Positions 8,621 to 41,039 of a stretch of 41,839 bases of DNA are shown piece by piece. The translations under genes and the position numbers were made by a program. Source of the DNA: Methanobacteriota archaeon (GTDB lineage: Archaea; Altiarchaeota; Altiarchaeia; IMC4; QMZM01); NCBI GenBank assembly GCA_903930485.1, contig CAIYYO010000024.1:1-41839 (forward strand), read 5' to 3'. Each line of letters opens with the position of its first letter. The first letter of the stretch is position 1. The notes beneath the pieces are model-generated. The model saw nothing but the letters and a program-made list of their open reading frames with translations, was not told where the DNA came from and ran no database searches.

Positions 8621-8628
8621 TCCACCCC

Positions 8629-9053: not shown

Positions 9054-9061
9054 TTTATAAA
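9054..9061 (+). promoter_or_regulatory. TATA box for the small plus-strand gene at 9083
   Basis: TTTATAAA is centred ~26 nt upstream of the ATG at 9083, in an AT-rich divergent region shared with the redoxin gene. Confidence 0.4.
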
Positions 9062-9082
9062 ATAAATAAGGGTTTCTAAAAA

Positions 9083-9284: not shown

Positions 9285-9292
9285 ACCGTCGC

Positions 9293-15183: not shown

Positions 15184-15203
15184 TTTTTTTCACCACCTAT
15201 CTT

Positions 15204-15965: not shown

Positions 15966-15966
15966 C

Positions 15967-16815: not shown

Positions 16816-16823
16816 CTTGATGA

Positions 16824-17696
16824 CTATTCAAATCTTTCATGGTTTCGGCTTATCAGCCTGCTTGATAAGACGCTTAGTACGAGCACGAACACGAAGGGGA
16901 CTATGCCGAGGCAGAACAGCGCCCTATAATGGAGGCTGTTTACGACCGCTTCACCCATCTCGAGAAGGATGGCCGACGTCAGCGTTTCTCCAGGAACCAG
17001 GAAGCCGGTCGGGAACTTTTCAACGTTCCCTATGACAAGAACGACTGCCATAGTCTCTCCGATCGCCCTACCCATTCCCAAGATGACGCCGGCGACGATG
17101 CCCTGGCTTGCGGCCGGGAGCAGGACCCGGTGAATAGTCTGCCAGTCGGTTGCGCCCATAGCATACGAGCCTTCGCGGTAAAGTCTCGGAACCGCCTCTA
17201 TCGCGTCCTGAGAGATGCTTATGATTATGGGCAGGACCATTATGGACAGGATTATCGATGCCGCGAGGATAGTCTCCCCCGTCGCAAGATTGAACGTAAT
17301 ATGGGCCGCGTTCACGATGATGACTAGGGCGAAGACGCCGTAGATGATGGACGGGATCCCGGCGAGTAATTCGATCGCGGGACGCACGATGTTCTTAGCC
17401 CAGCGCGGAGCGATCTCCGAGAGGAATATGGCGCAGGACAATCCTAAAGGCACCGCTATCAGGAGCGCGCCGAAGGTTACCATGAATGCTGCGACGATGA
17501 ATTGGAACGCGCCGTAGACGTCTTTCGACGGGACCCATCTGGTGCCGAACAGGAAATCCAGGACCCCGACTTTCGTGAACAAGGGAAGGCCGGCATTGAA
17601 GATGAAGAGCATGATAAGCAGTAGCACGACGACGGCGGTTATGCTGAAGAGCATCAACACCCTTCCGACCATTTTTTCAGGCTCGAATCTGCCCAT
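16824..17696 (-). CDS. pstC: Phosphate ABC transporter permease PstC
   Basis: 290-aa permease with the motif REGSYAMGATDWQTIHRVLLP. It sits directly after pstS. Confidence 0.9.
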   Translation of the reverse strand: MGRFEPEKMVGRVLMLFSITAVVVLLLIMLFIFNAGLPLFTKVGVLDFLFGTRWVPSKDVYGAFQFIVAAFMVTFGALLIAVPLGLSCAIFLSEIAPRWAKNIVRPAIELLAGIPSIIYGVFALVIIVNAAHITFNLATGETILAASIILSIMVLPIIISISQDAIEAVPRLYREGSYAMGATDWQTIHRVLLPAASQGIVAGVILGMGRAIGETMAVVLVIGNVEKFPTGFLVPGETLTSAILLEMGEAVVNSLHYRALFCLGIVPFVFVLVLSVLSSRLISRNHERFE

Positions 17697-17698
17697 TT

Positions 17699-18499
17699 TT
17701 ATGGTTTTATTTTTATGAATCCTTCATGTTTGACTATGTCCTGGCCTTCCGGGGAGAGGATGTAGTCGATGAAATCCTTGGAGATACCCTGCGGCTGTCT
17801 CTTGGTTATCAGGTACAGGTTCCTTGAAAGCGGGTACCGCTTGTTCCGGACGTTCTCTTCATCCGGTGACGAGCCGTTCAAGGAAATCGCCTTTATCGAG
17901 TCGTCGAGATAGCCTATGCCGACGTATCCTATCGCGTTCTCGTTCCCTGCGACCGTGAAACGGATGGCCCCGCTCGCAGGCTTCTGCAGCGCGCCGTCCG
18001 AGACGTCGGTTTTGCCCATCACCATGCTCTCGAACATCGACCTAGTCCCGGAGCCGTCTTCTCTCTCGACGAGGACGATGGGCCTATCCGGGCCCCCGAC
18101 TTCTTTATAGTTCTTTATTTTTCCCGAAAAGATGTCTCTGACCTGCTGGAGGGTTAAGTCTTTTATCGTGTTCGACGGATTCACTACAATGGCGATGCAG
18201 TCTATTGCTACAGTCGTCGTCACTAAGTCCGGCCCCTTGGTCTTTTCCTGGGCCGTAAGCTCGCGGGAGGAGGCGCCGATCCCGACAGAGCCTTCTGCGA
18301 CCATGTTTATTCCCGTTCCCGAGCCTCCGCCTTCGACGCCTATCCTTACGCTCGGATGCTCGGTCGAATATGTCTCAGACGCTCTTGTGACGATGGGCTG
18401 TACGGTAGTAGAGCCGGAAATGATCAGATCCTTGCTGTCCTTGCCGACGCAGCCGCCGAACAACGTGAGCGCTATGACGAAGCAGACTAGACTTTTCAT
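17699..18499 (-). CDS. pstS: Phosphate-binding protein PstS (lipoprotein-type signal)
   Basis: The ORF extends to 18592, but the Met at 18499 gives the signal peptide MKSLVCFVIALTLFGGC and avoids overlapping the upstream pstA2. It has SGSTTVQP and GGGSGTG motifs. Confidence 0.85.
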   Translation of the reverse strand: MKSLVCFVIALTLFGGCVGKDSKDLIISGSTTVQPIVTRASETYSTEHPSVRIGVEGGGSGTGINMVAEGSVGIGASSRELTAQEKTKGPDLVTTTVAIDCIAIVVNPSNTIKDLTLQQVRDIFSGKIKNYKEVGGPDRPIVLVEREDGSGTRSMFESMVMGKTDVSDGALQKPASGAIRFTVAGNENAIGYVGIGYLDDSIKAISLNGSSPDEENVRNKRYPLSRNLYLITKRQPQGISKDFIDYILSPEGQDIVKHEGFIKIKP

Positions 18500-18545
18500 C
18501 GCATTTATGTTTAATACTTGCACGCGGAACACAAAAATACAAAAC

Positions 18546-19400
18546 TCACCTCCGTATATTCGCAGACAGCCTGTTGTTGAGCGCCCTCGCAACGTAGTTC
18601 AAGACAAGCACCATGAACAGGAGCAGGGAGGCGACGGCAAAAGCCCGCGTTATGTATTGTTCGTTCTGGGCTTCGGATGTCAGGAAATACAGAGTTGTCG
18701 TGAGCGAATTGAAAGGGTCTGCAGGCGACAAAGGAGTGATCGGTGGCCAGAACGAGGCCAGCCAGATTATCGGAGCAGTCTCTCCGGCAGCCCTTCCCAA
18801 ACCAAGGATGACTCCGGTAATTATCCCCGGAAGCGCAGTTGGCAGTATAACTCCGGTTATCGTCTGAAGCTTTGTCGCGCCAAGGGCATAGCTTCCCTCT
18901 ATCTCGGACCACGGTACGGCCTTTATTGCGACCTCGGCGGTCCTGATGATCGTGGGAAGGATCATGAATCCCAGGGTCAGCCCGGCTGCAAAGACGGACG
19001 GCTTCATTCTCAAATAATAAAGGAACAACGTCAATCCGAATAAGCCGAACACTATCGACGGGATCGCGTTAAGGGCGTCGGAGCCGATTCTCATTAACTT
19101 CGTCGTCCGTCCTTCTTTTGTATACTGAGTCAGGTGGACTGCGGCCCCGATGCCGAGAGGGGTTGCGAAGAGGAGGGCTATCAAAACAGTGTACAGAGTC
19201 CCTATCAAAGCCGGAAGCATTCCGCCTGCAAGCCAGATATTTTCAGGCTGGCCCAAAACAAACTCCACACCCAGGTCGTGGGACCCCCGGTATACTACGT
19301 AGAGGACTATTGAACACAGGATCAGTAGAATGGAACCAGCAGACAGCCACAATAGAGTCATTGCGGCCTTGTTTTTTCTTTGAGGGGTGAAGTCTAACAT
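18546..19400 (-). CDS. pstA: Phosphate ABC transporter permease PstA, second copy
   Basis: 284 aa, paralogous to 15967..16815 (for example GSYALGATKLQTITGVILP). It overlaps pstC2 by 7 nt. Confidence 0.85.
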   Translation of the reverse strand: MLDFTPQRKNKAAMTLLWLSAGSILLILCSIVLYVVYRGSHDLGVEFVLGQPENIWLAGGMLPALIGTLYTVLIALLFATPLGIGAAVHLTQYTKEGRTTKLMRIGSDALNAIPSIVFGLFGLTLFLYYLRMKPSVFAAGLTLGFMILPTIIRTAEVAIKAVPWSEIEGSYALGATKLQTITGVILPTALPGIITGVILGLGRAAGETAPIIWLASFWPPITPLSPADPFNSLTTTLYFLTSEAQNEQYITRAFAVASLLLFMVLVLNYVARALNNRLSANIRR

Positions 19401-20299
19401 TTCGATTGCCTCCTCCTTTTTGCCAGCAGGTATTCTGAGGCCATGCTGAGGGCGAAGGCCATGAAGAACAACGTAAGCCCCAGGGTAAAGAGAGCGGCAT
19501 AATGCATGCTTCCGACAGGCACGTAGGACATATCCAACATTATCGCAGAAGTCAGGGTCTCTCCCCGGCTATCAATGCCGAGGATGTTCGACGGGATCAT
19601 TCCCACGTTGCCGAGGACCAGGACGACGGCCATGGTTTCGCCTATCGCCCTGCCCACTCCCAGGATGACTCCGGCAGCTATCCCGGGCATAGCGCCCGGC
19701 AGAATGACTTTCTGGATGGTCTGCCATTTGGTCGAGCCCAATGCGTAAGACGCTTCCCTGAAACTTCTGGGAACTGCACAAATCGCGTCCTGTGAAATGC
19801 TTATCACAATCGGCAGGATCATAACGCCGAGTATCAGTGCCGCAGCAAGTATCCCCTTGCCGGTTGGAAGAGAATCTCCTGTCAGCAATTTTCCAAGGTC
19901 CTGCTGTACCAGTCCCACGATCACGATCAATGCGAACAGGCCGTAGACTATCGAAGGGATTCCTGCCAGGAGTTCGATTGCCGGCCTCAGGATATTAACG
20001 GCTTTTTTTGGCGCCACCTCTGAAAGAAAGACTGCGCACGCGACTCCCAGCGGAACGGCTATGAAAAGCGCCCCGGCGGTCGTCAGGATAGAGCCGGCTA
20101 TGAATATTCCCGCGCCGTAAACGTTTGCCGTAGGCTTCCATACCGTTCCGGTGAGGAAACCAACCAGGTCTCCGTGAGAAAGGAACGGCAGGGCTTCCTT
20201 GAAAAGAAAAAAGACGATGAACAAAAGGATAAGGGCCGCGGATAACGCTGAGAGGAACAATGCCGCCCTTACCGTCTTTTCCTTGTCGCCGGGTTTCAT
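19394..20299 (-). CDS. pstC: Phosphate ABC transporter permease PstC, second copy
   Basis: 301 aa, paralogous to 16824..17696 (REASYALGSTKWQTIQKVILP). Confidence 0.85.
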   Translation of the reverse strand: MKPGDKEKTVRAALFLSALSAALILLFIVFFLFKEALPFLSHGDLVGFLTGTVWKPTANVYGAGIFIAGSILTTAGALFIAVPLGVACAVFLSEVAPKKAVNILRPAIELLAGIPSIVYGLFALIVIVGLVQQDLGKLLTGDSLPTGKGILAAALILGVMILPIVISISQDAICAVPRSFREASYALGSTKWQTIQKVILPGAMPGIAAGVILGVGRAIGETMAVVLVLGNVGMIPSNILGIDSRGETLTSAIMLDMSYVPVGSMHYAALFTLGLTLFFMAFALSMASEYLLAKRRRQSKC

Positions 20300-20302
20300 G
20301 CC

Positions 20303-21139
20303 TTATCTCAACTTTACGAACCCCTCGTCCTCGACTATTTTTTGTCCCGCGTCCGATAGCACATAATCTATGAATGCTTTCGCATTGCCGGAGGCTTCGC
20401 CTTTCGTCAGCATGTAGAGCTTCCTCGAGATGGGATACGTTCCGGACTTGATCGTCTCCCTGGTAGGCTCTATGCCGCCAATCTTCAGGCCTTTGACAGT
20501 TCCGTCCAGGTATCCTGCGCTGATGTATCCTATCGCGTTCGGGTTCGAGCCCACGGTCGCTTTAACGGCTCCGTTGCTGGGCTGCTGCTCTGCGTTTTGG
20601 GTATTATTGGTCTTGCCTTTGTCCATGATCATATCCTCAAAAGACGTCCTGGTACCGGAGCCTTCCTCCCTTATCACGACCACGATCTGCTTGTCAGGGC
20701 CGCCGAGTTCCTTATAGTTCGTTATCTTGCCGGAAAAGATGTCCTTGATCTGCTGCTTCGTGAGGTCCGAGAGTGTGTTGCCTGGATGGACGACGATCGC
20801 TATCCCGTCGTCGGCTATTTCGTAGACCTTGAGGTTCCCTGCTGCGATCTCATCAGCGGTCAGGTCTCTTGAAGATGCGCCTATGTCTGCCGAGCCTTCG
20901 GAGGCCATCTTTATCCCTGTGCCCGAGCCGCCTCCCGCAACCGAGACCGTGACGCCAGGATTAATCTTCATGTACGCTTCGGCAGCCTTTGCGGCTATCG
21001 GCTGGACGGTCGTCGATCCCGCCACCGTTAGTGTTTGTTTTTGTGTCCCTGGGTTGCTTCCCGTGCATCCTGCGTAGAGCAGGGTGGTTATAAGCAATAC
21101 CACGAGGTATGCTCCTTTTACCTTTCCGTTTATTTTCAT
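20303..21139 (-). CDS. pstS: Phosphate-binding protein PstS, second copy (lipoprotein-type signal)
   Basis: 278 aa with signal and lipobox-like LLYAGC, and AGSTTVQP and GGGSGTG motifs. By eye it is roughly half identical to the other PstS. Confidence 0.9.
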   Translation of the reverse strand: MKINGKVKGAYLVVLLITTLLYAGCTGSNPGTQKQTLTVAGSTTVQPIAAKAAEAYMKINPGVTVSVAGGGSGTGIKMASEGSADIGASSRDLTADEIAAGNLKVYEIADDGIAIVVHPGNTLSDLTKQQIKDIFSGKITNYKELGGPDKQIVVVIREEGSGTRTSFEDMIMDKGKTNNTQNAEQQPSNGAVKATVGSNPNAIGYISAGYLDGTVKGLKIGGIEPTRETIKSGTYPISRKLYMLTKGEASGNAKAFIDYVLSDAGQKIVEDEGFVKLR

Positions 21140-22249: not shown

Positions 22250-22303
22250 CTAAATGGCGTCTTATTACCAAGTTCCGACAAATATATACTTGAGGTGGTT
22301 GGT

Positions 22304-24931
22304 ATGTCAAGATTTTTTCTGTATACTGTAGGTGTTCTCTTTGCCTTCATAGTATTTTTTTCCGGGTGTATCAGCGGCCCGGGTGTGTATGGAAACGCTT
22401 CGACCACAACTCCGCAGGGGAATGCTACGAACCCGGAAATAAAAAACGCATCGATTGAGATTACCCAAAACCCGTCGCTTGGAGCCATAATTACCGATGG
22501 CGACGGCATGACCTTGTACGTGTTTACAAAAGACGTGCAGGGTAAGAGCAACTGCTACGCCCAATGCGAAGCCGCATGGCCGCCGTTGTTTGTCACGGGA
22601 AGCGTCACCTCCTCAGACCTTTCTCAAGAAGACCTCGGAGTGACCCTACGACAGGATGGACGCACGCAGGCTACCTTTAAGGGCATGCCTCTATACTACT
22701 TCGCGCAGGATAAAAAACCCGGAGACATAGCTGGCGAGGGCTACGGAAAGGTATGGTATGCCCTTGTGTTGCCTTCCGACAAAGCGATCCCTCCTGAGGC
22801 CGCGCAATACTCTAAAGACTGGCCTCTACCCAATAAGGACTACAGCAACACCCGCGCCACCAAGGACTCATCCATAAACTCCGGGAACGTGAAAGACCTG
22901 GGAGTAGGATGGTCGTTCCCCATACCCGGAGTAGGCGCCTACGGGGGCGCGGCAAGCACGCCGCTGATACTCGGGAATACGGTATACTTCCAGGACCTCA
23001 AAGCCAACGTCTTTGCATTGGATCTCCAAAACGGCAAAGCGAAGTGGTCGAAGATGTATGATATTTCGGCGGTGGTCGGTCCCAACGGCCCTGCGGTAGC
23101 CTACGGCAAAGTATTTGTCGCAAAAGACCTCTACAGCATGGTCGCATTGGATATCAATTCAGGCGAGGAGCTGTGGTCTACAAAGCTGTCAGATGTGAAA
23201 ACAACGGGCATAGACATCCAGCCAACGGCCTATGACGGCCTAATATACACATCGACGGTTCCGGGAACTGCCGATATATTCTACGCGCCGGGAGGTATCG
23301 GCGTCATATACGCCCTCGACCAGAAAGACGGTTCAGTCAAATGGAACTTTTCCACGGTGGATTCACCCGACCTATGGGGGCATCCCGAAGTAAACAGCGG
23401 AGGGGGCTGCTGGTATACCCCCTCGATAGACCTCGCGACCGGCATAATGTACTGGGGAATAGCCAACCCCGCGCCCTTCCCTGGAACGGAGCAATGGCCC
23501 AGCGGCTCAAGCAGGCCCGGACCCAACCTGTATACCGACAGCATGATGGCCCTGGAACACAGGACCGGAATGATGAGCTGGTATAAACAAGTCCTCCAGC
23601 ACGACCTCTTCGACTACGACTTCCAGATAGCGCCGATCCTTGCCAGCGCGAAAATAAACGGAAAACAACAGGACATCGTCATAGGCGCCGGGAAGATGGG
23701 GAGAGTATATGCCTTCAACCGCGGCACGGGAGAGATACTATGGTCGGCAAACGTCGGAGAACATAACGGGAACGATCAGCTCGACCGCCTGCCCCCAGGG
23801 ACTACGAAGGTCATACCTTCCGCTCTTGGAGGGGTGGAAACGCCGATGGCTTATTCAGACGGCATCGTGTACGTGCCGGTGGTCGATCTGCCGATGGATT
23901 GGACGCCTACAAAATTAGATTTTTCGTCGGTGAATTTCTCCAGCTCGAAGGGAGAGCTTGCGGCAATAGATGCGAGTACCGGCAAGACCTTATGGAATAA
24001 GGTTTTTGACTCATTGAATGTCGGAGGGGCCACGGTTGTGAACGACCTGGTATTCACCGCCACATATGGCGGAAACATCTACGCCTTCAAAAAAGACACC
24101 GGGGAGCAATTATTCCAGTACAAGGCGCCTGCGGGGATCAATGCCTGGCCGGCCGTAGCCGGAGACACCATAATATGGCCTGCCGGCGTAGGCGGCACTC
24201 CAATGCTCGTAGCCCTGAAAATAGGGGCTAAAGATGTTCCTGCGTCCTCACCCGCGCTCGCGATAATAAAACCGAATAAAGGCTCCACGATATTGGCCGG
24301 GGATATAGAAACAGCCGTCAAAGTGTCGAATTTCAACCTGGTCCATAAGCCCGGAGACGCCAACGTAAAAGGGGAGGGACATCTTATCTACTATTTAGAC
24401 GTTGAACCGCCGACGGACCCGCTGCTGCCTGCGTTCACTTCCACCGGCACATACGGGGCGGACTACGGCACTTCACACATATGGATGGGAGTAGCACCGG
24501 GCGCCCATACTTTCGCGGTGCAGCTGGTCAACAACGACCACACGCCTCTGAGACCCCCCGTCATAGCAAGAGCATCGTTCAATACAATAGCATACAACTA
24601 CGGGGAAGGCGCCGGAGGAGAGACTGCCAAAATAACCCTGACGGCGAAGAACAGAGCATTCGACAGGAAACAAATAATCGTCCCGGCAGGCGCGCTGGTA
24701 ACGATAGTATTCAACAACCAGGACGAAGGGATCCAACACAACTTCGCGGTCTACGAAGACAAGGAAGCGACTAAACTAGTCTTCCGGGGAGGTCTTATAA
24801 CTGGCGTCTCAACCACTACCTACAAATTCGCCGCTCCGATGAAGACCGGAACCTACTTCTTCCAGTGCGACCCCCACTCTAAGATCATGAACGGGGAATT
24901 CATCGTGCAAATCTCGGGAGGATCGATATGA
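22304..24931 (+). CDS. Secreted/lipid-anchored multidomain protein: Yx(FWY)xxD lipoprotein domain, PQQ-dehydrogenase-like beta-propeller, DUF4399-like domain and C-terminal type-1 cupredoxin
   Basis: The ATG at 22304 is preceded by GAGGTGG (the ORF track starts at the GTG at 22295). The signal plus FFSGC resembles a lipobox. MTLYVF...CYAQCEAAWPP...PLYYFAQD matches the COG4315-type domain. There are six or more A(L/F)D..(T/N/D)G...W propeller repeats. Quinoprotein dehydrogenase signatures are present: GGGCWYTPSIDLATGIMYWGIANPAP and NLYTDSMMALEHRTGMMSWYKQVLQHDLFDYD. The C-terminal copper ligands are HNF...C-DP-H-SKI-M. Confidence 0.8.
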   Translation: MSRFFLYTVGVLFAFIVFFSGCISGPGVYGNASTTTPQGNATNPEIKNASIEITQNPSLGAIITDGDGMTLYVFTKDVQGKSNCYAQCEAAWPPLFVTGSVTSSDLSQEDLGVTLRQDGRTQATFKGMPLYYFAQDKKPGDIAGEGYGKVWYALVLPSDKAIPPEAAQYSKDWPLPNKDYSNTRATKDSSINSGNVKDLGVGWSFPIPGVGAYGGAASTPLILGNTVYFQDLKANVFALDLQNGKAKWSKMYDISAVVGPNGPAVAYGKVFVAKDLYSMVALDINSGEELWSTKLSDVKTTGIDIQPTAYDGLIYTSTVPGTADIFYAPGGIGVIYALDQKDGSVKWNFSTVDSPDLWGHPEVNSGGGCWYTPSIDLATGIMYWGIANPAPFPGTEQWPSGSSRPGPNLYTDSMMALEHRTGMMSWYKQVLQHDLFDYDFQIAPILASAKINGKQQDIVIGAGKMGRVYAFNRGTGEILWSANVGEHNGNDQLDRLPPGTTKVIPSALGGVETPMAYSDGIVYVPVVDLPMDWTPTKLDFSSVNFSSSKGELAAIDASTGKTLWNKVFDSLNVGGATVVNDLVFTATYGGNIYAFKKDTGEQLFQYKAPAGINAWPAVAGDTIIWPAGVGGTPMLVALKIGAKDVPASSPALAIIKPNKGSTILAGDIETAVKVSNFNLVHKPGDANVKGEGHLIYYLDVEPPTDPLLPAFTSTGTYGADYGTSHIWMGVAPGAHTFAVQLVNNDHTPLRPPVIARASFNTIAYNYGEGAGGETAKITLTAKNRAFDRKQIIVPAGALVTIVFNNQDEGIQHNFAVYEDKEATKLVFRGGLITGVSTTTYKFAAPMKTGTYFFQCDPHSKIMNGEFIVQISGGSI

Positions 24932-25464
24932 AAAACATAAAAAAGTTTGGGAGGATATTTACGGCATTCTTTATTGTCTCTGTTTTTTTAACGCTCGGAT
25001 GCGTCCAGCAGCCGGGGAACCCTGGAACGACTCCGACAACGACTGTTGAGGCCACTACGACGGAGACGCCGGCAACGCCGACCGAGGTCCAGTCAACGGC
25101 GCCTCAGGTCACGATCCCTGCCGCGACCCCAACTCGGGAAACGAATACGGAAAAGATCGCTACGACGACTATGACGGCAACGGCAATTCCAACGACTGCC
25201 CAGAATACGGCAAAGACGGTTCAGGTTTCGATAAGCGGCTTCGCATTCCACCCTTCGATGGTAAATATTAATAAAGGCGATACCGTAGTCTGGACTAACA
25301 TGGATACTGCCCCCCACACCGTTACGTCAGATTCGGGAGGAGAGCTGTCTTCAAGCACGTTATCCCAGGGAGACACGTACTCGCACACCTTCAACTCCAC
25401 CGGGGCGTTTGCTTATCACTGCAGCATACACACTTCGATGAAAGCTGATGTGAACGTTAAATAA
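24928..25464 (+). CDS. Cupredoxin (amicyanin/halocyanin-like blue copper protein), lipoprotein with a Thr/Pro-rich linker
   Basis: 178 aa. Its start overlaps the upstream stop in an ATGA, and a GGGAGG ribosome-binding site is present. It has a signal plus LTLGC and a ~70-aa T/P/A-rich linker. The type-1 Cu ligands are APHTV...YHCSIHTSM. Confidence 0.8.
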   Translation: MKNIKKFGRIFTAFFIVSVFLTLGCVQQPGNPGTTPTTTVEATTTETPATPTEVQSTAPQVTIPAATPTRETNTEKIATTTMTATAIPTTAQNTAKTVQVSISGFAFHPSMVNINKGDTVVWTNMDTAPHTVTSDSGGELSSSTLSQGDTYSHTFNSTGAFAYHCSIHTSMKADVNVK

Positions 25465-25568
25465 CCCTAATAGTCGACGGCAGGCCGTGCATGCTGGAGC
25501 TTTCTTTAGTATCCCTCATAACCCTTTCCTATAAATCCGGGGCTGTCTTATATATTTAAGGTGAGACT

Positions 25569-26063
25569 ATGGACCGGGTAATAAATCTGTTGATTTTCGC
25601 AGTTATTTTGTCGCTTATCCTGTCCCCAGGCTGCGCGCATCAAAGCACAAAGCCGCAAGCTGAAACGACCACAGTCCCTGAAGAGAACCCCGTTCCTACG
25701 GAAAGCCCCATAGCAACGACTACGACTCTTACGAGCTCCAACGGATTCAACTCCTCCATCAACGATTCAGAGGCGAAGTCTACTACGACTACGCTGCCCG
25801 GGGACGTATCGAAGATGATCAATCTGGCGATAAAGAATTTTGAGTACAGCGAGGTCGCGCTGAGGATCCGTAAGGGCGACACGATCGTATGGACAAACCT
25901 CGACACGGTCGCACATACCGTGTCCTCGGACACGGGCGGCGAACTGGATTCCGACACGCTCGTCAGGGGAGAGACTTTCATGCACACCTTCAACAGCCCC
26001 GGGGTATTCAACTACCATTGCAAGATCCATCCGTCGATGAAAGCCAAGGTGATAGTCTCATGA
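25569..26063 (+). CDS. Cupredoxin, second paralog, lipoprotein with a Thr-rich linker
   Basis: 164 aa with an AGGTGA ribosome-binding site, a signal plus LSPGC, and type-1 Cu ligands VAHTV...YHCKIHPSM. Confidence 0.8.
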   Translation: MDRVINLLIFAVILSLILSPGCAHQSTKPQAETTTVPEENPVPTESPIATTTTLTSSNGFNSSINDSEAKSTTTTLPGDVSKMINLAIKNFEYSEVALRIRKGDTIVWTNLDTVAHTVSSDTGGELDSDTLVRGETFMHTFNSPGVFNYHCKIHPSMKAKVIVS

Positions 26064-32260: not shown

Positions 32261-32878
32261 ATGGATGCAAAAAACAAGATCTACGTTCTGCCGGAACTGC
32301 CTTATGCCTACGATGCATTGAAGCCGTACATATCTGAAGAACAATTGAGGATACACCACGACAAGCATCATGCGGCTTATGTAGCCGCGGCGAACGCTCT
32401 TCTGGAATCGCTTGAAAAGGCGAGGCAGGGAAATACGGACCTGGATTACGGAACGGTCGCAAAACAACTGTCCTTCAACACTGGAGGCCATCGGCTGCAT
32501 TCGCTCTACTGGAAGAACCTGACTCCCGTGGATAATACCGGCAAGGCGCCGAAGCCCTCGGGAGAGATAGGCAACGCCATAGACCGGGAATTCGGAAGCT
32601 TCGACCGCTTCAAAAAAGAGTTCTCGCAGACCGCGGCAAAGACCGAAGGCTCGGGCTGGGCAGTCCTATCGTTTTGCCGCGAGGTCGAGCGGCCTATAAT
32701 AATGCAGGTCGAGAAGCACAATATGAACGTGACGCCAAGGCGTCCCGTGATACTGGTGCTGGACGTATGGGAGCACGCATACTATCTGGACTACAAGAAC
32801 GACCGGGCCAAATACGTTGAAAACTTCTGGAACATAGTCAACTGGGACGAAGTGGGCAGGCGGCTTGCAGATCTGTAG
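32261..32878 (+). CDS. Fe/Mn-family superoxide dismutase
   Basis: 205 aa with LPELPYAYDALKPYIS...HHDKHH and DVWEHAYYLDY motifs. Confidence 0.95.
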   Translation: MDAKNKIYVLPELPYAYDALKPYISEEQLRIHHDKHHAAYVAAANALLESLEKARQGNTDLDYGTVAKQLSFNTGGHRLHSLYWKNLTPVDNTGKAPKPSGEIGNAIDREFGSFDRFKKEFSQTAAKTEGSGWAVLSFCREVERPIIMQVEKHNMNVTPRRPVILVLDVWEHAYYLDYKNDRAKYVENFWNIVNWDEVGRRLADL

Positions 32879-33765: not shown

Positions 33766-34284
33766 TTAACGTCTATTCCTTATGCTCCTCATCAGCGCCA
33801 GCAGCCCCTTCATTAACTCTTTCGGCTCTGGCGGATTCCCGGGTATTTTGATATCGACCGGCAGTATCATGTCCGCGCCGCCGAGGACTGCGTATGTCCC
33901 TTTATAGATCCCGCCGTCGCACGCGTCGTCCCCGACCGCCATTACGTACTTGGGCGAAGGAGTCGCATCATACGTCTTTTTCACTGCCCCGGCCATGTTG
34001 CGCGTGACCGCGCCGGTTATAACAATAACGTCCGCATGCCTCGGCGACGCTACGAAGGTTACTCCGAATCTTTCGACGTCGTAGTGAGGCGTCCCCAGGT
34101 TGTTCAATTCGATTTCGGCGGCATTGTCGCTTCCGCTATCAAGTTCGCGAATGGCAAGGCTTCGCCCAAATATGGTGTCTATGTCCTTTTTCAGCCTGAT
34201 GCCTAGCGCCTCGAATTCTTCGTCCTTGAAAGTGACTTCCTCAGTCACGGGTTTTTTGAAAATGTTCGTGATAGCTTTGTTCAT
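33766..34284 (-). CDS. NuoB/HycG-like small subunit lacking the canonical [4Fe-4S] cysteine ligands
   Basis: The start at 34284 (MNKAITN) is 5 nt after the large-subunit stop. The longer ORF to 34572 overlaps that gene. The fold motifs are clear: YDVERFGV..VASPRHADV.VITGAVT and PK.V.AVG. The cluster motifs are degenerate: GSDNAAE instead of GSCNGCE, GDDACDGG instead of GxCAxxGG, and IPGNPP instead of IPGCPP. Confidence 0.8.
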   Translation of the reverse strand: MNKAITNIFKKPVTEEVTFKDEEFEALGIRLKKDIDTIFGRSLAIRELDSGSDNAAEIELNNLGTPHYDVERFGVTFVASPRHADVIVITGAVTRNMAGAVKKTYDATPSPKYVMAVGDDACDGGIYKGTYAVLGGADMILPVDIKIPGNPPEPKELMKGLLALMRSIRNRR

Positions 34285-34289
34285 TTTTT

Positions 34290-35870
34290 TTACAAGTCTG
34301 TGCCCGAATATGAAAGGTTGAAACTCTTGTTGATCAGGGGGAAATCCGGCACGATGTTGCCGATGACTGCGTGTTCTATCGCCTGCCAGTTGCAGAACGA
34401 GGCCGTGCGTATTTTGTATCGGTCGACGACGCCGTTCTTTACCCAAATCCAGTGGAAGCTTTGGCCCCTTGCGCATTCGACGAGGGAGGTGGCGTAGCCG
34501 TCCCTGATGGCATAATCCGTAGATACCGGGCCCGAAGGCAGATCGTCGAGCGCCTTTTTTATCATCCTGCACGAGTCGAGGATATCCGAAGCCTTTGTCT
34601 CGAACCTTGCCAGGACGTCGCCCTCGTCTACGGTTTTCACGTTCGGTTTTATTTTTTCGTATAGGCCGTAGGGGTGATATATCCTGGTATCTGTAGAAAG
34701 CCCATTCGAGCGCGCCATCGGTCCGGTTATGTGCAGGGCCGCTAGCAGCTCTTTACGTATAACGCCCGTCTTTTCGAATCTGTCTATGACCGAGGGCGTT
34801 GAACGCACATATTCGACCGACTCTTCAAACGTCTCTATACATTTATCCAGGAAGGTAGGCAGCTGTTTCAGCGCGTCTTCCGGAACGTCTTTTTTCAGCC
34901 CGCTTATGCCTATGACGTCTTTCATGAAACGCGAACCTGTAAGGGCCTTGTTCTGTCTCAGGATCTCTTCCCGTAATATGAAGAACGGGCTAGCGCCTAC
35001 CGGGAACGCGACGTCGACGCACATCCCGGCAAGGTCTCCGAGAAGCGAATAGATCCTTTCCATCTCGAGGAAGACAGTGCGCAGGCGCCATGCGCGTTCC
35101 GGCGGCCGGATGCAGCAGAGCTTCTCTATGGCATTGCAATATGCGACGGCGTTGGATACCTTCTCGTCTCCGCTTATGGATTCCGCGATCCTCACGCATT
35201 CCTCGGGCGTTTTCCCTTCCGCCAGTTTCTCTATCCCGCGGTGTTTGTAGAACATCCGTATCTCGAGGTGGTAGATCGTCTCTCCTATGACGCTGAACCT
35301 GAAGTGTCCGGGCTCTATGATCCCGGCGTGGACTGGTCCGACGGGTATCTCGTAGACTCCTTCGCCTGCGACTTTTCTGAACTGGTATTCTCCAGCGCCG
35401 GTCGGCTCGCCGTTTTCCATTGTATCGAGCTCAGAGTTCTTGAACCCTTTTTGCAGCGGGTGGAACCCTTCTGGGTATGATTCGTGCAGGAAGAGCCTTC
35501 TTTCGTCGAAGGGGTTTGTGAACCTTATGCCGTAGCCGTCGGTCGCTTCTCTTTCGTACCATGACGCCGACGGGAACGACGACGTTATCGATGGCGCGCT
35601 TTCCCATCTGAGCGGGAGCCGGAATACTGCGATCTCTTTGTAGGGCTTTTTCTCGAATGCATAGAGCAGCGTGTAGGCGGCGTGCGCATCAAAGCCTTCG
35701 ACGCAGAAAAGGCTTGCGAGTTCGTAGGCGCTTGCTGACAGGAGATGCATGACGGTCTCCAAGTCCCTCTCAGCTAGGGTAATGTAGACGTCGTTATTGC
35801 ACCCTATCTTTGCGTCTGACTCGACTATCCTGCCCCTTGTCGTATATGCTATGTCGTCTATAAGCTCCAT
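34290..35870 (-). CDS. NuoC-NuoD fusion (HycE/HyfG-like large subunit) lacking all [NiFe]-binding cysteines
   Basis: 526 aa with an N-terminal NuoC-like part (WYEREA.DGYGI.F) and a NuoD-like part (PVGPVHAGIIEPGHFRF, RMFYKHRGIEK). The L1 motif reads SISGDEKVSN where CG[ILV]Cxx.H is expected. The C-terminus reads NLSYSGTDL-stop where DPCxSCxDR is expected. Confidence 0.85.
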   Translation of the reverse strand: MELIDDIAYTTRGRIVESDAKIGCNNDVYITLAERDLETVMHLLSASAYELASLFCVEGFDAHAAYTLLYAFEKKPYKEIAVFRLPLRWESAPSITSSFPSASWYEREATDGYGIRFTNPFDERRLFLHESYPEGFHPLQKGFKNSELDTMENGEPTGAGEYQFRKVAGEGVYEIPVGPVHAGIIEPGHFRFSVIGETIYHLEIRMFYKHRGIEKLAEGKTPEECVRIAESISGDEKVSNAVAYCNAIEKLCCIRPPERAWRLRTVFLEMERIYSLLGDLAGMCVDVAFPVGASPFFILREEILRQNKALTGSRFMKDVIGISGLKKDVPEDALKQLPTFLDKCIETFEESVEYVRSTPSVIDRFEKTGVIRKELLAALHITGPMARSNGLSTDTRIYHPYGLYEKIKPNVKTVDEGDVLARFETKASDILDSCRMIKKALDDLPSGPVSTDYAIRDGYATSLVECARGQSFHWIWVKNGVVDRYKIRTASFCNWQAIEHAVIGNIVPDFPLINKSFNLSYSGTDL

Positions 35871-35882
35871 ATTTTTCTTCTT

Positions 35883-37334
35883 CTAAAATCCGAGTCCGGA
35901 AACTATGCTATTCAATGCTCCGTCCAAAGGCTGCGGGAAGAACAACCCGAGGCCGTAGACCAGTATTATGAGGATTATCACCGGGATTTTCATCCTTACA
36001 GGTGTGGGGTAACGGCGCATAACGTCGTTCTCGTCTATTCTCGTGAAGATGGCGGTGATGAATAATGCGAAGCCGGCGGCCGCTAACAACAGCAGGAGGA
36101 GAACTGCGATGAGGAGGATCGTCGAGAACTTCGCCACCTGGACGAGGATGGAAAATTTTGTAATGAAAACGATTGCTGGCGGGATCCCTATTATGGCAAG
36201 GCTTCCGAGGATCAGTCCTGCAGAGGCAAGCGGCTGCAGTTTTAGCGCGTTCTTTATGTTCTCGATCTTGTTGCTGTCGTATTGCCGGTTCAGTATCCCC
36301 GCCGACAGGAATAGAAGGGCTTTGGTAAGGGAATGGGCAAGGACGTGATACAAAGTCCAGTAGATCGCGATCGGTGTCCCGATTCCGATTCCTATGAGCA
36401 TGAGTCCTGCGTGTTCCGTGCTTGAGAATGCTATCAGTTTTTTCAGATTCTTCTGCTGCAGCATGCTGAAGGCTGCGATGAACAGGCTGAGGATTCCGAA
36501 AGCTATCAGGAGGTTCGAACACGTCGCGGCCGAGCCTGGGTTCTGCCTCGTTATCGAGTAGATGCGCAGTATTCCGTATATCCCTATGTTCAGCATGACG
36601 GCCGAGATTATGGCGCTTACTGCCGAGGGGGCTTTCGAGTAGGCGTGCGGCAGGCTTGTATGCAGCGGCGCTATTCCGGATTTGGCCGCGTATCCGAGGA
36701 ACATGAACGCGAAGCTTGCGGCAAGGGGCGCTGCCGGGAAGGTTTTTGCGTTCTTGAGCAGGACGTCCCAGTTCAGTGTCCCTGTTCCGAGGGTTTTTTC
36801 AGTCAGGGCGAACAGGAGGATCAGGCCGATGAACGAGAACAGCATCGCAGTAGACGTGACGAATATGTATTTCAGCGACGCATCTATGTTCTTTTTCGAG
36901 TTCAGTATGGCTATGAGGAAGGCCGTGAAGAACGTGGTGAGTTCGGCGAATATCCAGAACAGCGCAAGGTTGTTGGACGAAAAGGCGAGGACTGTGAACA
37001 ATAGCAGCGCATTGAAGGAGAGATAGTAGCCCTTAAGGTTTTTCCTTTCAAGGATGCCGATCTTTATCAGGCTCTCTGCATGCCCTCCTGCATAGACTGC
37101 GGCGAGCAGGAAGATCGTGCCGGCGATGAATATCTCGTAGGTGCTGAGGGCGTCGATATACAGGTTGTTTTCAAGATAGTAAACCGGAATGGCGCCGGAA
37201 TACTGGAGGCAGGCGGCGAACGCGATGCATGCGATGGCGTGGGCTATTGCAACAAGATTCATAGCTTTATGCGATTTCAGGAATTGCGTGAGCGCAAGGG
37301 CCGCGAAAGCCGCCAGAAGATAATATTGGAGCAT
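35883..37334 (-). CDS. Antiporter-like subunit (NuoM/N, HyfD/F-type)
   Basis: 483-aa polytopic protein with Mrp/NuoN-type motifs (SGIAPLHTSLPHAYSKAP, AFSSTEHAGLML). Confidence 0.8.
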   Translation of the reverse strand: MLQYYLLAAFAALALTQFLKSHKAMNLVAIAHAIACIAFAACLQYSGAIPVYYLENNLYIDALSTYEIFIAGTIFLLAAVYAGGHAESLIKIGILERKNLKGYYLSFNALLLFTVLAFSSNNLALFWIFAELTTFFTAFLIAILNSKKNIDASLKYIFVTSTAMLFSFIGLILLFALTEKTLGTGTLNWDVLLKNAKTFPAAPLAASFAFMFLGYAAKSGIAPLHTSLPHAYSKAPSAVSAIISAVMLNIGIYGILRIYSITRQNPGSAATCSNLLIAFGILSLFIAAFSMLQQKNLKKLIAFSSTEHAGLMLIGIGIGTPIAIYWTLYHVLAHSLTKALLFLSAGILNRQYDSNKIENIKNALKLQPLASAGLILGSLAIIGIPPAIVFITKFSILVQVAKFSTILLIAVLLLLLLAAAGFALFITAIFTRIDENDVMRRYPTPVRMKIPVIILIILVYGLGLFFPQPLDGALNSIVSGLGF

Positions 37335-37335
37335 T

Positions 37336-38061
37336 TTACGCCTCCTCCCCGTTTCTTTTCCTTAAATGCTCGAACCTCTTCTGCAGCCGGGGGATATGGA
37401 TGGCGTTGAATTTCTCCCTGAACTCCTCCACGCTGGAATCTACTCCTATGGAAAGGATGGCCGCGAGCAGGACTATCATAAAAAGGTCTATCATCACAAG
37501 CACCTCTATCATGAAAGGCAGCTCGGTCAGAAACAGGCTGAAGAGCAGGACCCCGTTCTCCATCGTCAGATAGCCGATCACCTTGGTGATTACTTTTTTC
37601 CTGCTGAACGTGATGAGCATCCCCATGAGAGTAAGGGATATCCCGAATACCGCGCCGAGATAGAAGAGGTCGCCGGGCGAGAGTTCCCGCAGGATCTTTG
37701 TGAACGAGCCGTAGACGAGTAGGATCAGGAATATCATCGCGGTTATGGATTCCATCGGCGAGAGATAGTGGAAATCTATGTCTCGGGATATTTTTATCTC
37801 TTTCTGTATCTTTTTTATGGCATAAGGTATCAGTATCACTTTGCTGGTCACTGTCAAGACGGCCAGGTATAAGAGCATCTCGCTTCCGTTGGAAAGATAA
37901 AGAGAAACAGCGATGACCGACAATAGCAGGGACTGGAGCTGGTATGCCGAGACCAGTGAAAGAAGGTCTTTCCTCGTCACGACGAACGCGCCGGTCACCA
38001 GGACCATGACCAGGAGCGCCTCTATCCAGTCGCCGCCAGCCGGCAAGCCTGACGCTATCAT
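37336..38061 (-). CDS. HyfE-like small membrane subunit
   Basis: The start at 38061 forms an ATGA overlap with the stop of the upstream gene. The ORF extension to 38259 lies inside that gene. The protein is ~241 aa with multiple TM helices and a hydrophilic tail. Its position and size match HyfE of hydrogenase-4-type operons. Confidence 0.65.
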   Translation of the reverse strand: MIASGLPAGGDWIEALLVMVLVTGAFVVTRKDLLSLVSAYQLQSLLLSVIAVSLYLSNGSEMLLYLAVLTVTSKVILIPYAIKKIQKEIKISRDIDFHYLSPMESITAMIFLILLVYGSFTKILRELSPGDLFYLGAVFGISLTLMGMLITFSRKKVITKVIGYLTMENGVLLFSLFLTELPFMIEVLVMIDLFMIVLLAAILSIGVDSSVEEFREKFNAIHIPRLQKRFEHLRKRNGEEA

Positions 38062-38999
38062 CCGAACACCTCCAACCATATCGTGAGGATCGAGAAGAAG
38101 AACGCTATCATGAAAAGGCTGGGCAGGTTGAAGAACCTCATCTTTGCCATGGAAGATTCCACAAGGCCGGTCACGAAAGAAAGCAGGCCGGCCTTTAAGG
38201 CGAATGCTGCGGCAGCGATCAGTATTCCTGCGACGGTGAGCTCCGAGGTCAGCCCCCATGGAAGGAGTATGTTTATCAGGACCGCCATGTATAGCGTTTG
38301 TTTTATCGCGTGGGAAAGCTCCATCAGGGCAAGGTCTCTTCCGGAGTATTCGAGGACCATCGCCTCATGGACCATGGTGAGCTCCAAATGAGTCTCGGGA
38401 TTGTCCACCGGCACTCGAGAGGTCTCGACTATGAGGACGATGAACAAGGGGATCGCTATGAGAAGCAGTCCCGGGTTCAGGAATGCGGTCGCACCGGCTC
38501 TTTCAAGGAACATCTGATGGAAGTCGGTGGTATGCAGGCTGAAAGAAAGGGCGGCGAATGCTATGATCGTTATCGGCTCGATGATGGCCGATATGCTCAT
38601 CTCCCTCGAGCTTCCCATGCCTCCGAAGGTGCCTCCGGCATCCAGTCCGGACAAAGCCATGAAGAATTTTGCCAGCGCGAGCATGTAGAGGAACAGGATG
38701 ACGTTGCCTATCCCGTCGGTCGGCGTAGGTATCAAAGCCAGGGGTATGCACAGCGAAGCCACGAGCATCACTGCTATGTTGATGTAAGGCGTCGCCCTCA
38801 TGATGGCCGACGTGTTCTTTGAATAGATCCTCTCTTTTTTCAGGAGCTTGGACAGATTGTAATACGGCTGCAGGAGCGGCGGGCCTCTCCTACCCTGCGC
38901 CCGCGCCTTGACAATCTTTATGAGCCCCATGTAGAACGGCGATAACAGCACCACCAGTACGGTGTTCAGCAGGGCGTATAACAGGAACGAGGCGTTCAT
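38058..38999 (-). CDS. NuoH/HycD/HyfC-like membrane subunit
   Basis: The ATG at 38999 forms an ATGA overlap with the upstream stop (the ORF track starts at the GTG at 39008). Motifs are RAQGRRGPPLLQPYYNLSKLLKKE and ETSRVPVDNPETHLELTMVHEAMVLEYSG. Confidence 0.85.
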   Translation of the reverse strand: MNASFLLYALLNTVLVVLLSPFYMGLIKIVKARAQGRRGPPLLQPYYNLSKLLKKERIYSKNTSAIMRATPYINIAVMLVASLCIPLALIPTPTDGIGNVILFLYMLALAKFFMALSGLDAGGTFGGMGSSREMSISAIIEPITIIAFAALSFSLHTTDFHQMFLERAGATAFLNPGLLLIAIPLFIVLIVETSRVPVDNPETHLELTMVHEAMVLEYSGRDLALMELSHAIKQTLYMAVLINILLPWGLTSELTVAGILIAAAAFALKAGLLSFVTGLVESSMAKMRFFNLPSLFMIAFFFSILTIWLEVFG

Positions 39000-40933
39000 A
39001 TGAACCACCCCACGTAGACCATGATCAGGACCGCGGCGATGAATACGTATGCCAGGTATGTGTCCAGGTTCCAGTTCTGGAGCCGGGAAACCTTCTCGGA
39101 TAATGAATTAACGAGCCTCGCAATAGGGAGATAGAGCGCTTCCTCGAAGAATTTCACCAGATGTATCTCTGCGCTGCCCTGCACGAAAAGGCTCTTGCTC
39201 TCGTCAAAATACGTCGCCTCCCTGACCTCCTTTGTCCTGTATATCGAGCTGAATATCCTGACGATGGGCTGGGAGTATCCGGATGCGGTGTATTCGTTCC
39301 TCCCGGTCTGCGTTAATATGCCGCAGCCCCACGTTTCCCCCATTCTTTCCGCGCTCGATGAAACGTTTTTCAAGACAAACCATGCAAGAACGTAGGCCGC
39401 CGCGAGGAACGACCCGATAAGCAACAGGTCAGGTATGGGCAGAACGTATCCTGCGCCTGCGAATATCTGGTAGGAAAAGATGCCGAGGGACATGCATAAA
39501 AAGGCAAGTATCATGGGTCCGAGGAGCATGTATTTCCCAACCTCTTTCGCATTCTTTGCATTATCAGACCTCGGGGCCGCGAGGAAGGTTATGCCGAAGG
39601 CTTTCACGAAGCATGCGGACGCAAGGGCGCTCGTCAATGCGAGAATCGCAAGCGAGGAAAGCATGAGCACCTTCATGAAAGGATCGACCAAGGCATAGGA
39701 TTGCAGGAGCGCGGTGAATATCATGAGCTCGCTTACGAAGCCGTTGAACGGAGGGAGACCGGAGATTGATACGGCGCCTACGAGAAAGAACAATGCGGTG
39801 TACGGCATCCTCTTCACGAGCCCGCCCATGTCTTCGATGTTCCTCTCGCCGGTCCTGTAGACCACGGAGCCGGCAGTCAGGAAAAGAAGGCTCTTGAAGA
39901 CGGCATGGTTGAGGACGTGGAAAAGCGAACCCAACAGGCAGAGCATTGCGATATCAGGGAGGTTGTTATTCGTGAATATTATGTACGCTCCGAAACCGAT
40001 GAGGATTATCCCTATATTCTCTATGCTGTGATAGGCCAGCAGCCGTTTTATGTCGTGCTCCTTGAGGGCGTATATGACCCCCAGTATCGCTGAAAGAGTC
40101 CCGGCGACGAGGATGAGCACCCCCCACCAGGTTTCAGGCTGCAGGACCGTGAGCGTGAAGCGCATCAGGCCGTATATTGCGACTTTGATCATGACCCCGG
40201 ACATCAGGGCAGAAATATTCGACGGGCTTGCCGTATGCGCGTATGGAAGCCATTTATGGAACGGTATAACGCCGGCCTTTATGCCGAAGCCGACGAAAAG
40301 CGCCAGGAATACCACTCCTGCGGCGCCGGTACCGATATCTGCTGGCTGTATCGCAAAAGACCCAGTCACTGCATTGAGCCCCAAGAATCCGGCCGTCAGG
40401 AACAACGTCGACAGCTGCGTCATGATGAAATAGAACAGTCCGGCCTTGCGGGTCTCGGGCTTTTCGTATTCGAACAAGACCAGGGCGAACGACGACATAG
40501 ACATTATCTCCCAGAAGAACAGGAAGGCGAACATGTTCGCAGAGGACACGACGAACAACATGGCAGCTATGAAGAGATTCATCAAACCCGTAAGGATGTT
40601 CTTCCTCTTCTCCCCGTGCCAATGTCCTATGTACTGAACCGAGTATATCGAAGCGCTCAATGCGACGACTGAGATAAGCAGGATGAAAAAAGCAGCCAAG
40701 CGGTCTATACGAAAAGAGAGCACAAGACCTGGGGCGATCCCGTACGGCGCAAGGTATACCTGCTGGTTCGTATACAGGATAAATACGGAAAACGAGATGA
40801 ACACGAGCAGGGCGAGCATCGAGAAAAACAGGGCTATCCGTCTCATCACGCCGTCTCCGCCGATCCTCACGAGCGGGAGGACCGTTCCGAGGAGCAGTAA
40901 GGCTGCGCCTACGTAGAAAGCAGTCGAGAGCAT
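38996..40933 (-). CDS. NuoL/HyfB/HycC-like antiporter-type subunit
   Basis: 645-aa polytopic protein with FFWEIMS, PFHKWLPYAHTASPSNISALMSG and AYHSIENIG motifs. Confidence 0.85.
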   Translation of the reverse strand: MLSTAFYVGAALLLLGTVLPLVRIGGDGVMRRIALFFSMLALLVFISFSVFILYTNQQVYLAPYGIAPGLVLSFRIDRLAAFFILLISVVALSASIYSVQYIGHWHGEKRKNILTGLMNLFIAAMLFVVSSANMFAFLFFWEIMSMSSFALVLFEYEKPETRKAGLFYFIMTQLSTLFLTAGFLGLNAVTGSFAIQPADIGTGAAGVVFLALFVGFGIKAGVIPFHKWLPYAHTASPSNISALMSGVMIKVAIYGLMRFTLTVLQPETWWGVLILVAGTLSAILGVIYALKEHDIKRLLAYHSIENIGIILIGFGAYIIFTNNNLPDIAMLCLLGSLFHVLNHAVFKSLLFLTAGSVVYRTGERNIEDMGGLVKRMPYTALFFLVGAVSISGLPPFNGFVSELMIFTALLQSYALVDPFMKVLMLSSLAILALTSALASACFVKAFGITFLAAPRSDNAKNAKEVGKYMLLGPMILAFLCMSLGIFSYQIFAGAGYVLPIPDLLLIGSFLAAAYVLAWFVLKNVSSSAERMGETWGCGILTQTGRNEYTASGYSQPIVRIFSSIYRTKEVREATYFDESKSLFVQGSAEIHLVKFFEEALYLPIARLVNSLSEKVSRLQNWNLDTYLAYVFIAAVLIMVYVGWFI

Positions 40934-41039
40934 GTTTCCTTATTCACAGAATACCTGCGGAGTGTTTTCCATCCCTTTTTTATGGCTTTAGGTACCGTTT
41001 TCGAGAGTAATATACTTCACAGGAGAATAAAAATAGAGA

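Follow-up and report, generated by a model that had tools for sequence, protein, structure and literature searches.

What can a complex I-like machine do once its peripheral arm no longer holds a recognisable redox cofactor? The question is raised by contig CAIYYO010000024.1 (GenBank assembly GCA_903930485.1) of a Methanobacteriota archaeon placed in the Altiarchaeota, a stretch of 41,839 nucleotides (nt) that was analysed over its full length and is referred to here as the window. Positions 33766-40933 on its reverse strand hold six same-direction, closely spaced open reading frames (ORFs), in which a first-pass annotation of the sequence had recognised a hydrogenase-4 (Hyf)/complex I-like gene order, and had proposed that electron transfer has been lost and that the peripheral arm is kept for a non-redox role. 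We find that this operon very probably encodes a functional, cofactor-free complex of the Ehr (Ech/energy-converting-hydrogenase-related) family, of the ehrABCDLS type. As judged from the sequences, the complex has no recognisable site for Ni, for an iron–sulfur (Fe-S) cluster or for any cysteine-ligated cofactor, and the best explanation of the evidence as a whole is that a cofactor-free Ehr acts as an Mrp-like ion translocator, a reading to which we assign a probability of about 0.5.

In the direction of transcription the genes are ehrA (38996-40933; 645 amino acids, aa), encoding a NuoL/HyfB/HycC-like antiporter-type membrane subunit; ehrB (38058-38999; 313 aa), a NuoH/HycD-like membrane subunit; ehrC (37336-38061; 241 aa), a HyfE-like small membrane subunit; ehrD (35883-37334; 483 aa), a HyfF/NuoM-N-like antiporter-type subunit; ehrL (34290-35870; 526 aa), a NuoC-NuoD fusion and HycE-like large subunit without the NiFe ligands; and ehrS (33766-34284; 172 aa), a NuoB/HycG-like small subunit without the [4Fe-4S] ligands and with a single cysteine. 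ATGA overlaps join ehrA to ehrB (38996-38999) and ehrB to ehrC (38058-38061), and the remaining gaps are 1, 12 and 5 nt, the last of these lying between ehrL and ehrS. The order, the overlaps and the 1-12-nt spacing that had been described are thus borne out by the ORFs, the junctions and the Pfam and NCBIfam matches, and the same protein lengths (313, 241, 483, 526 and 172 aa) are found in public gene calls on independently assembled contigs.

EhrA matches PF00361 (1e-59) and PF00662 and scores 870 bits against NCBIfam NF006418 (cutoff 794 bits); among solved structures its best match is HycC (7Z0S_C, 8e-70), and MrpA is matched at 2.5e-47. EhrB matches PF00146 (6e-37) and HycD (7Z0S_D, 4e-39), and EhrD matches PF00361 (2e-49), NF006427 (569 bits, cutoff 511 bits) and MbhH (6CFW_H, 8e-35). 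EhrC is recognised by NF008556, the hydrogenase 4 membrane subunit (E = 2e-14, which is under the curated cutoff), and it has no Pfam match and no solved homologue when searched as a single sequence or as a 34-sequence profile. EhrL contains PF00329 and PF00346 and aligns with Escherichia coli HycE (7Z0S_E) at E = 7e-67, and EhrS matches PF01058 (5e-25), NDUFS7 (1e-31) and HycG (3.5e-27), as well as MbhJ. An AlphaFold2 model of the EhrS monomer, with a predicted local distance difference test score (pLDDT) of 78, gives Foldseek matches to NuoB, MbhJ and HycG; it supports the fold only, because the loop at residues 52-58 has a pLDDT below 50 and the model is uninformative about the rebuilt site described below.

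This set of genes had been taken to go beyond the Ehr concept, a claim that does not hold: both in gene content and in gene order it agrees with the named ehrABCDLS clusters, and it is one member of a clade represented in as many as about 500 species genomes. In Geobacter sulfurreducens, GSU0739-45 comprises seven genes with two ehrA copies and includes EhrA (NuoL-like), EhrC (HyfE-like), EhrL and EhrS; every subunit has been found in proteomic data, at higher abundance on formate (PMC7894505). The Methanospirillum hungatei genes Mhun_1817-1822 are ehrABCDLS, lie among fdh genes, and are assumed to reduce ferredoxin (PMC4704411). The Geobacter and Methanospirillum prototypes share with the window the same six kinds of subunit, the same naming and order, a NiFe-less large subunit and an unknown function, and orthology with the M. 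hungatei cluster is likely, judging from the Methanomicrobiales loci of the family at about 67% identity. Ehr as defined in the published descriptions compared is without the NiFe site only; the window's clade is also without the ligands of the proximal [4Fe-4S] cluster N2, and both of its sites have been rebuilt. In the published descriptions compared, Ehr is a hydrogenase-related cluster of unknown function that is defined by missing NiFe ligands, HydDB excludes it from the hydrogenases, and the small-subunit cluster is not mentioned; the founding papers, in which the N2 loss may already have been described, lie outside that comparison. In 2005 Coppi reportedly regarded the Geobacter cluster as not apparently a hydrogenase, with related clusters in both Archaea and Bacteria. 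Neither sequence nor fold comparison with the PDB turned up an Ehr complex.

The large subunit has none of the four NiFe cysteines, as had been noted. In the alignment with HycE, C241-G-x-C244...H corresponds to EhrL S233-G-D-E236...N240, and the C-terminal D-P-C-x-x-C-x-D corresponds to N518-L-S520-Y-S-G523-T-D, such that S233 and E236 occupy the positions of the first cysteine pair and S520 and G523 those of the second. The N-terminal motif S233-G-D-E-K-V-S-N240 (35151-35174, reverse strand; C-G-x-C-x-x-x-H in the hydrogenase) and the C-terminal motif N518-L-S-Y-S-G-T-D-L526 (34293-34319, reverse strand; D-P-C-x-x-C-x-x-R) are strictly maintained, with S233, G234, D235, E236 and N240 and also N518, S520, Y521, G523 and D525 each present in 68/68 large subunits of the family. 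The C-terminus of EhrL (L526) coincides with the aligned end of the HycE L2 motif, which is about where HycE is processed on maturation. E236 and N240 are confined to the window's clade, and sister clusters have T/S at position 236 and H at 240.

The small subunit shows the same pattern. Alignment with NDUFS7, MbhJ and HycG places D53, A56, D120 and N150 of EhrS at the canonical N2 ligand positions, so that the absence of these cysteines also stands. The motif D53-N-A-A-E57 (34114-34128, reverse strand) replaces C-N-G-C-E, with D53 in 72/72, N54 in 71/72 and E57 in 72/72 sequences and a variable position 56; D119-D120-A-C122 (33919-33930, reverse strand) replaces x-C-A-x, with D119 in 70/72 and D120 and C122 each in 71/72; and N150 (33835-33837, reverse strand), in P-G-N-P-P, takes the place of the fourth ligand in P-G-C-P-P, the position being N in 69/72 and D in 3/72. 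Among 4219 database relatives of EhrS at E <= 1e-10, the 120 closest (66-82% identity) all contain the motifs D-x-G-S-D-N-x-x-E, G-D-D-A-C-x-G-G and P-G-N-P-P. We considered whether C122, the sole cysteine of EhrS, might be a shifted fourth ligand, and rejected this because the same cysteine is also present in many homologues that have all four ligands; it is an inherited second-shell residue. To call the ligands of the two subunits lost is correct as to their absence and understates what has taken their place: both former metal sites have been rebuilt, and not merely lost, with Ser/Asp/Glu/Asn motifs that are invariant or nearly so and that involve five residues at the former N2 site and about eight at the former NiFe site.

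Since all of the catalytic metal ligands are absent, one might suppose that the operon is a hydrogenase operon in decay or a relic without function, and a 2026 Geobacter paper indeed interprets missense mutations in ehrA-2 and ehrB to mean that Ehr is already nonfunctional and under relaxed selection (PMC13194489). For the window's family this is effectively refuted by the selection analysis and retains only a minimal probability. The ratio of nonsynonymous to synonymous substitution rates (dN/dS; Nei-Gojobori, for orthologue pairs with unsaturated synonymous sites) is 0.07-0.14 in each of the six genes, which means strong purifying selection throughout. Intact ORFs are found in about 70 genomes, the motifs that replaced the ligands do not vary, and in Geobacter the subunits are produced as protein (PMC7894505). 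Among the six proteins EhrS is the best conserved, with 64-80% identity over the fetched loci and 66-72% to the bacterial copies. An assembly error at the motifs was also considered and rejected, because the identical small subunit occurs on at least five contigs from different samples and the ligand substitutions are common to 68-72 orthologues. The low dN/dS, the invariant replacement residues and the retention of charged membrane residues therefore rule out an assembly error as well as decay or relaxed selection, in agreement with the earlier view that the cluster is not decaying.

The charged residues of the membrane arm are well maintained. In EhrA, E142, K219, K250, H339, H343, K347 and E402 are each kept in at least 93% of 56 sequences (55 orthologues and that of the window); the acidic E-channel residues E141, E192, D199, E206, E212, E217 and E227 of EhrB are conserved; and in EhrC, E168, E186, D192, D208 and E212 are invariant. 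E131, K218, H334, K338 and K393 are conserved in EhrD, in which the position in transmembrane helix (TM) 8 is N/S/T and not Lys. The statement that the membrane subunits keep their family motifs is upheld. In the large subunit, the beta1-beta2 coupling loop G178-P-V-H-A-G-I-I-E-P-G-H-F-R191 (35298-35339, reverse strand) is similarly conserved, with G178, P179, H181, G183, E186, H189 and R191 each in 68/68 sequences.

These features invite comparison with the Mrp Na+/H+ antiporter (6Z16, 7QRU, 7D3U), which has antiporter-like subunits homologous to EhrA and EhrD and runs without redox chemistry. The Mrp-type TM5 Glu, TM7 Lys and TM12 Lys are kept as E142, K219, K250 and K347 in EhrA and as E131, K218 and K338 in EhrD. 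However, Mrp is without NuoH-, NuoD- and NuoB-like subunits and has MrpB, E, F and G, and in the window the converse is true; Mrp is the closest functional analogy, one that concerns the working mode and not membership. By this analogy we tentatively suggest that the Ehr complex operates without electron transfer as a secondary, Mrp-like cation/proton translocator gated by a cap formed by the L and S subunits. The Hyf/Mrp-type membrane arm would translocate ions without electrons, either as an antiporter or as a converter between ion gradients, while the L/S cap would close and gate the E-channel where it opens to the cytoplasm. Cations or protons may be bound or relayed by the former metal sites, which are rich in carboxylates and would in this way stand in for the quinone or proton chemistry by which the conformational and electrostatic wave is set off in complex I and in the hydrogenase MBH. 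Conservation of the channel residues, of the acidic E-channel in EhrB and of the beta1-beta2 loop all favour translocation, and the non-redox role earlier proposed for the peripheral arm is the most economical reading, the specific mechanism being one that we infer.

Several considerations weigh against the translocator. No Ehr has an ion-transport assay, a structure or genetic work to its name. The invariance of S-G-D-E...N, D-N, D-D-A-C and N looks more like that of a catalytic or ligand-binding site than of a passive plug, and of the six proteins it is the small subunit that is conserved best. Mrp needs no peripheral arm, and the keeping of an arm of ~700 residues under strong selection wants explanation. 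The Methanosarcinales hosts are moreover known to have a separate Mrp antiporter. Finally, the increase of the Geobacter Ehr on formate (PMC7894505) and the location of the M. hungatei ehr genes among fdh genes (PMC4704411) hint at a connection with formate or redox metabolism.

The hint of redox chemistry can be weighed against the genes that accompany the operon and against its nearest relatives. There is no CxxC in any of the six Ehr proteins, no ferredoxin-type CxxCxxCxxxC in a six-frame scan of the whole 41.8-kb window, and no HycF/HyfH/NuoI-type gene in the cluster, in which the L and S genes are only 5 nt apart. Genes for hyp, hycI, fdhF and hyfA are likewise lacking among the window ORFs of at least 150 aa that were run on Pfam (essentially the non-overlapping ORFs). 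On both counts the first-pass annotation was correct.

Among 50%-identity cluster representatives, an exhaustive search found that the window's clade comprises one or two sequences. The nearest outsiders (51-53% identity) have all four N2 cysteines and share the six-gene architecture, HycF again being absent, and in their large subunits the NiFe cysteines are already gone and the S-G-D and N-x-S-Y-S-G-x-D-L motifs are present. The sister state is thus "classic" Ehr, and the window's clade has gone one step beyond it, the N2 ligands having been lost too. The sister clusters L083/L084 and L085/L086 have the same six subunits, no HycF/NuoI, these same two motifs and a beta1-beta2 loop identical to the window's, but their small subunits keep C-N-G-C, G-D-C-A and P-G-C-P-P, and some are ordered S-A-B-C-D-L.

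This step has been taken more than once. At least two N2 ligands are absent in 30 of 143 representatives, the ligand pattern requires at least 18 changes from a CCCC root on a rough neighbour-joining tree of these 143 (built without the ligand columns), and several Cys-less sequences have a CCCC sequence as their nearest neighbour; the N2 ligands were lost several times independently. Three independent Cys-less lineages, with the patterns NEGD, SAES and DAAD, lie in clusters of the Ehr type, those of NEGD and DAAD being complete six-gene clusters and that of SAES, on a truncated contig, including only the large and small subunit genes. The N2 cysteines have been replaced convergently by Asp, Asn, Ser or Glu, and the occurrence of independent Cys-less lineages in the same architecture implies that the Fe-S cluster is dispensable for what this architecture does. 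In one Ehr-type locus (L088:210-2353; ENA ERZ27311206, contig k141_5873008) both NiFe motifs of the large subunit are complete, as EGACGVCSVTH and ELCYACTDR; the small subunit, of 201 aa, has the pattern SAES and zero Cys, and this would be a NiFe site without an Fe-S wire.

Could the complex nonetheless still be a redox enzyme? Electrons might reach a substrate pocket at the L/S/B interface directly, either from a docking partner encoded elsewhere, for which formate dehydrogenase and an F420- or flavodoxin-type donor are candidates, or from a membrane carrier such as methanophenazine or menaquinone; or the complex might hold a cofactor that the sequence cannot reveal, such as an alternative organic or non-Cys-ligated one. 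Electron transfer or a partner is what the published descriptions compared assume, whether as a complex of formate dehydrogenase with Ehr (PMC6349859), as ferredoxin reduction (PMC4704411) or as a further electron-transfer role (PMC10432482). The greater abundance of the Geobacter subunits on formate (PMC7894505), the N2 ligands of the sister clusters and the full NiFe motifs of L088 all point the same way. We nevertheless consider it unlikely, since the subunits have no CxxC and no frame of the window a ferredoxin motif, the small subunit has only one Cys, the 80 best loci have no conserved redox gene next to them, and repeated loss of N2 went along with continued selection on the architecture. 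Those Ehr types to which formate dehydrogenase has been assigned as a proposed partner, furthermore, have a fusion of NuoB and NuoI homologues, and the window's clade has no such fusion.

Another possibility is that Ehr is a non-redox catalyst coupled to an ion gradient. The rebuilt Asp/Glu/Ser/Asn/Tyr pockets would then bind a hard metal (Mg2+, Mn2+ or Ca2+) or a polar substrate, and the complex would perform, or be driven by, a hydrolysis, hydration or decarboxylation step. DAB and the cyanobacterial NDH-1MS/CupA, in which antiporter-like subunits are coupled to CO2 hydration, offer a comparison. The near-complete invariance of the former ligand sites is typical of active sites and would be so explained, as would the pronounced conservation of the small subunit, the retention of the coupling loop and E-channel, and the convergent exchange of Cys for Asp, Asn or Ser in independent lineages. 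Yet there is no recognisable catalytic domain or motif, Pfam and NCBIfam giving only hydrogenase and complex I families; no His/Cys set is available for Zn; the pocket is not uniform across Ehr, E236 and N240 being T/S and H in the sister clusters; and the AlphaFold2 monomer is of low confidence at loop 52-58. Such a catalyst is in our view improbable. The broader proposal that a non-redox ligand, either a hard metal ion or a small polar substrate, binds in the rebuilt carboxylate pockets and is coupled to ion translocation is doubtful, though marginally less so.

Mrp-like translocation by a cofactor-free Ehr remains our preferred reading, and it is of interest to ask from which kind of enzyme such a complex derives. 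E. coli formate hydrogenlyase (FHL; Hyc, 7Z0S) provides the best solved homologues for four subunits, HycC, HycD, HycE and HycG. The gene order of the window corresponds to hyfB-C-E-F-G-I, with NCBIfam matches to the B, E and F subunits of hydrogenase-4, and because of this the operon is regarded as a hydrogenase-4 derivative without HyfA, HyfD and HyfH. FHL and Hyf have a NiFe site, N2, a HycF/HyfH subunit with 2x[4Fe-4S], HycB/HyfA, FdhF and maturation genes, whereas none of these is present in the window. With no NiFe cysteines, no proximal [4Fe-4S] ligands and no 2x[4Fe-4S] subunit in the cluster, the complex does not belong to the group 4 [NiFe]-hydrogenases; nor is it a complex I/NDH-1, having six genes in place of at least 11 core subunits (among them NuoA, NuoJ, NuoK and NuoI), no NuoI and no N2 ligands. 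Other NiFe-less relatives with antiporter-like subunits are the NuoB-NuoI-fusion Ehr of Margulisbacteria, Firmicutes and hyperthermophiles, and Mbx/MBS (6U8Y), but these still have Fe-S domains, and redox chemistry is thought or known to drive them, and MBS matches the window proteins far more weakly (2.5e-19 for L and 2.4e-09 for B).

The family is widespread. A scan of one genome per species found a relative encoded in up to 507 species genomes, a number that is an upper bound for the clade because one of the two search patterns also fits Cys-containing relatives. The best 80 loci are from Methanosarcinales (23, including cultured isolates), Bathyarchaeia (17), Methanomicrobiales (15), Dehalococcoidia (6), Altiarchaeota (5), Moduliflexus (3) and others, and the hosts include Methanosarcina isolates and Methanoregula. 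Essentially all loci with enough flanking sequence (about 70 loci) have the genes in the order A-B-C-D-L-S. The archaeal proteins of the window share 46-69% identity with the bacterial copies over all six subunits, which implies that the module has passed between Archaea and Bacteria as a whole. Module and remaining window have the same G+C content, and in this comparison there is no compositional sign of recent transfer.

Clustering of the ORFs that flank the 80 loci revealed no partner gene conserved across taxa, only lineage-specific synteny. An ion permease gene at 41040 was correctly described as the divergent neighbour of the operon, and belongs to the CitMHS/ion-transporter superfamily; it is not a family-wide partner, since only the closest relative, the locus L003 in an Altiarchaeales metagenome-assembled genome (MAG; Candidatus Altiarchaeales MAG nzgw1), shares this adjacency. 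There too the operon is flanked by the CitMHS permease and a superoxide dismutase (SOD) gene, which places the host and indicates that the permease adjacency is lineage-specific. The 106-nt divergent intergenic region between ehrA and the permease gene (40934-41039) contains A-rich TATA-like stretches and is presumed to be the promoter region for both genes. In L003, a second set of ehrA, ehrB and ehrC (L003:14389-17851) lies ~4 kb downstream of the first ehr operon, showing that the module has been duplicated in that genome. In Methanosarcina loci the operon is followed by genes for a helix-turn-helix (HTH) regulator and a response regulator, for a histidine kinase and for a type-IIC P-type ATPase, and a regulator gene of another kind, the ArsR/HTH_5 type, adjoins the ehr cluster at L083:6731-7081, L084:6258-6608 and L088:2412-2777.

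The remaining genes of the window are of the kinds usual in archaea, with Cdc48, Nre, TiaS, NrdD, two Pst systems, ACS-ADP and SOD among their products. The Pst genes (14482-21139, reverse strand) form two tandem phosphate-type ABC transporter sets, with two binding proteins and four permease genes, and one ATPase gene and one PhoU gene in common. On the forward strand, 22295-26063 encodes an 878-aa protein with pyrroloquinoline quinone (PQQ)-type beta-propeller repeats and a C-terminal cupredoxin domain, followed by two small cupredoxins. Together with the Fe/Mn SOD gene at 32261-32878 these represent copper- and oxygen-related equipment in a host that otherwise looks like an anaerobic archaeon and also has NrdD. 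A segment of ~1 kb (8237-9292) is without an ORF of at least 150 aa, a tRNA or an Rfam match, and no RNA genes were found in the window.

The small subunits of Cys-less Ehr clusters (P0004, P0005, P0122 and others) are labelled "Ni,Fe-hydrogenase III small subunit", "formate hydrogenlyase subunit 7" or "NADH-quinone oxidoreductase subunit B" in the databases. Such labels, and the depiction of Ehr as a ferredoxin-reducing hydrogenase in the paper on the M. hungatei genome (PMC4704411), imply chemistry that Cys-less Ehr proteins cannot perform. Ehr has been catalogued for about twenty years with its function still unknown, and has been either drawn as a hydrogenase or ferredoxin reducer (PMC4704411) or dismissed as dead (PMC13194489). 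For the window's clade, the combination of no recognisable redox-cofactor site, strong selection and repeated loss of N2 argues against both views. The window module is a member of a known family, and what it does is to sharpen a twenty-year-old open question, which shifts away from "which electron donor?". The rebuilt residues are mutable handles, and the cluster is present in cultured Methanosarcina and Methanospirillum strains. The coupling of a non-redox ligand to ion translocation, if true, would be a new energy-coupling principle for the superfamily, in hundreds of anaerobic archaeal and bacterial species.

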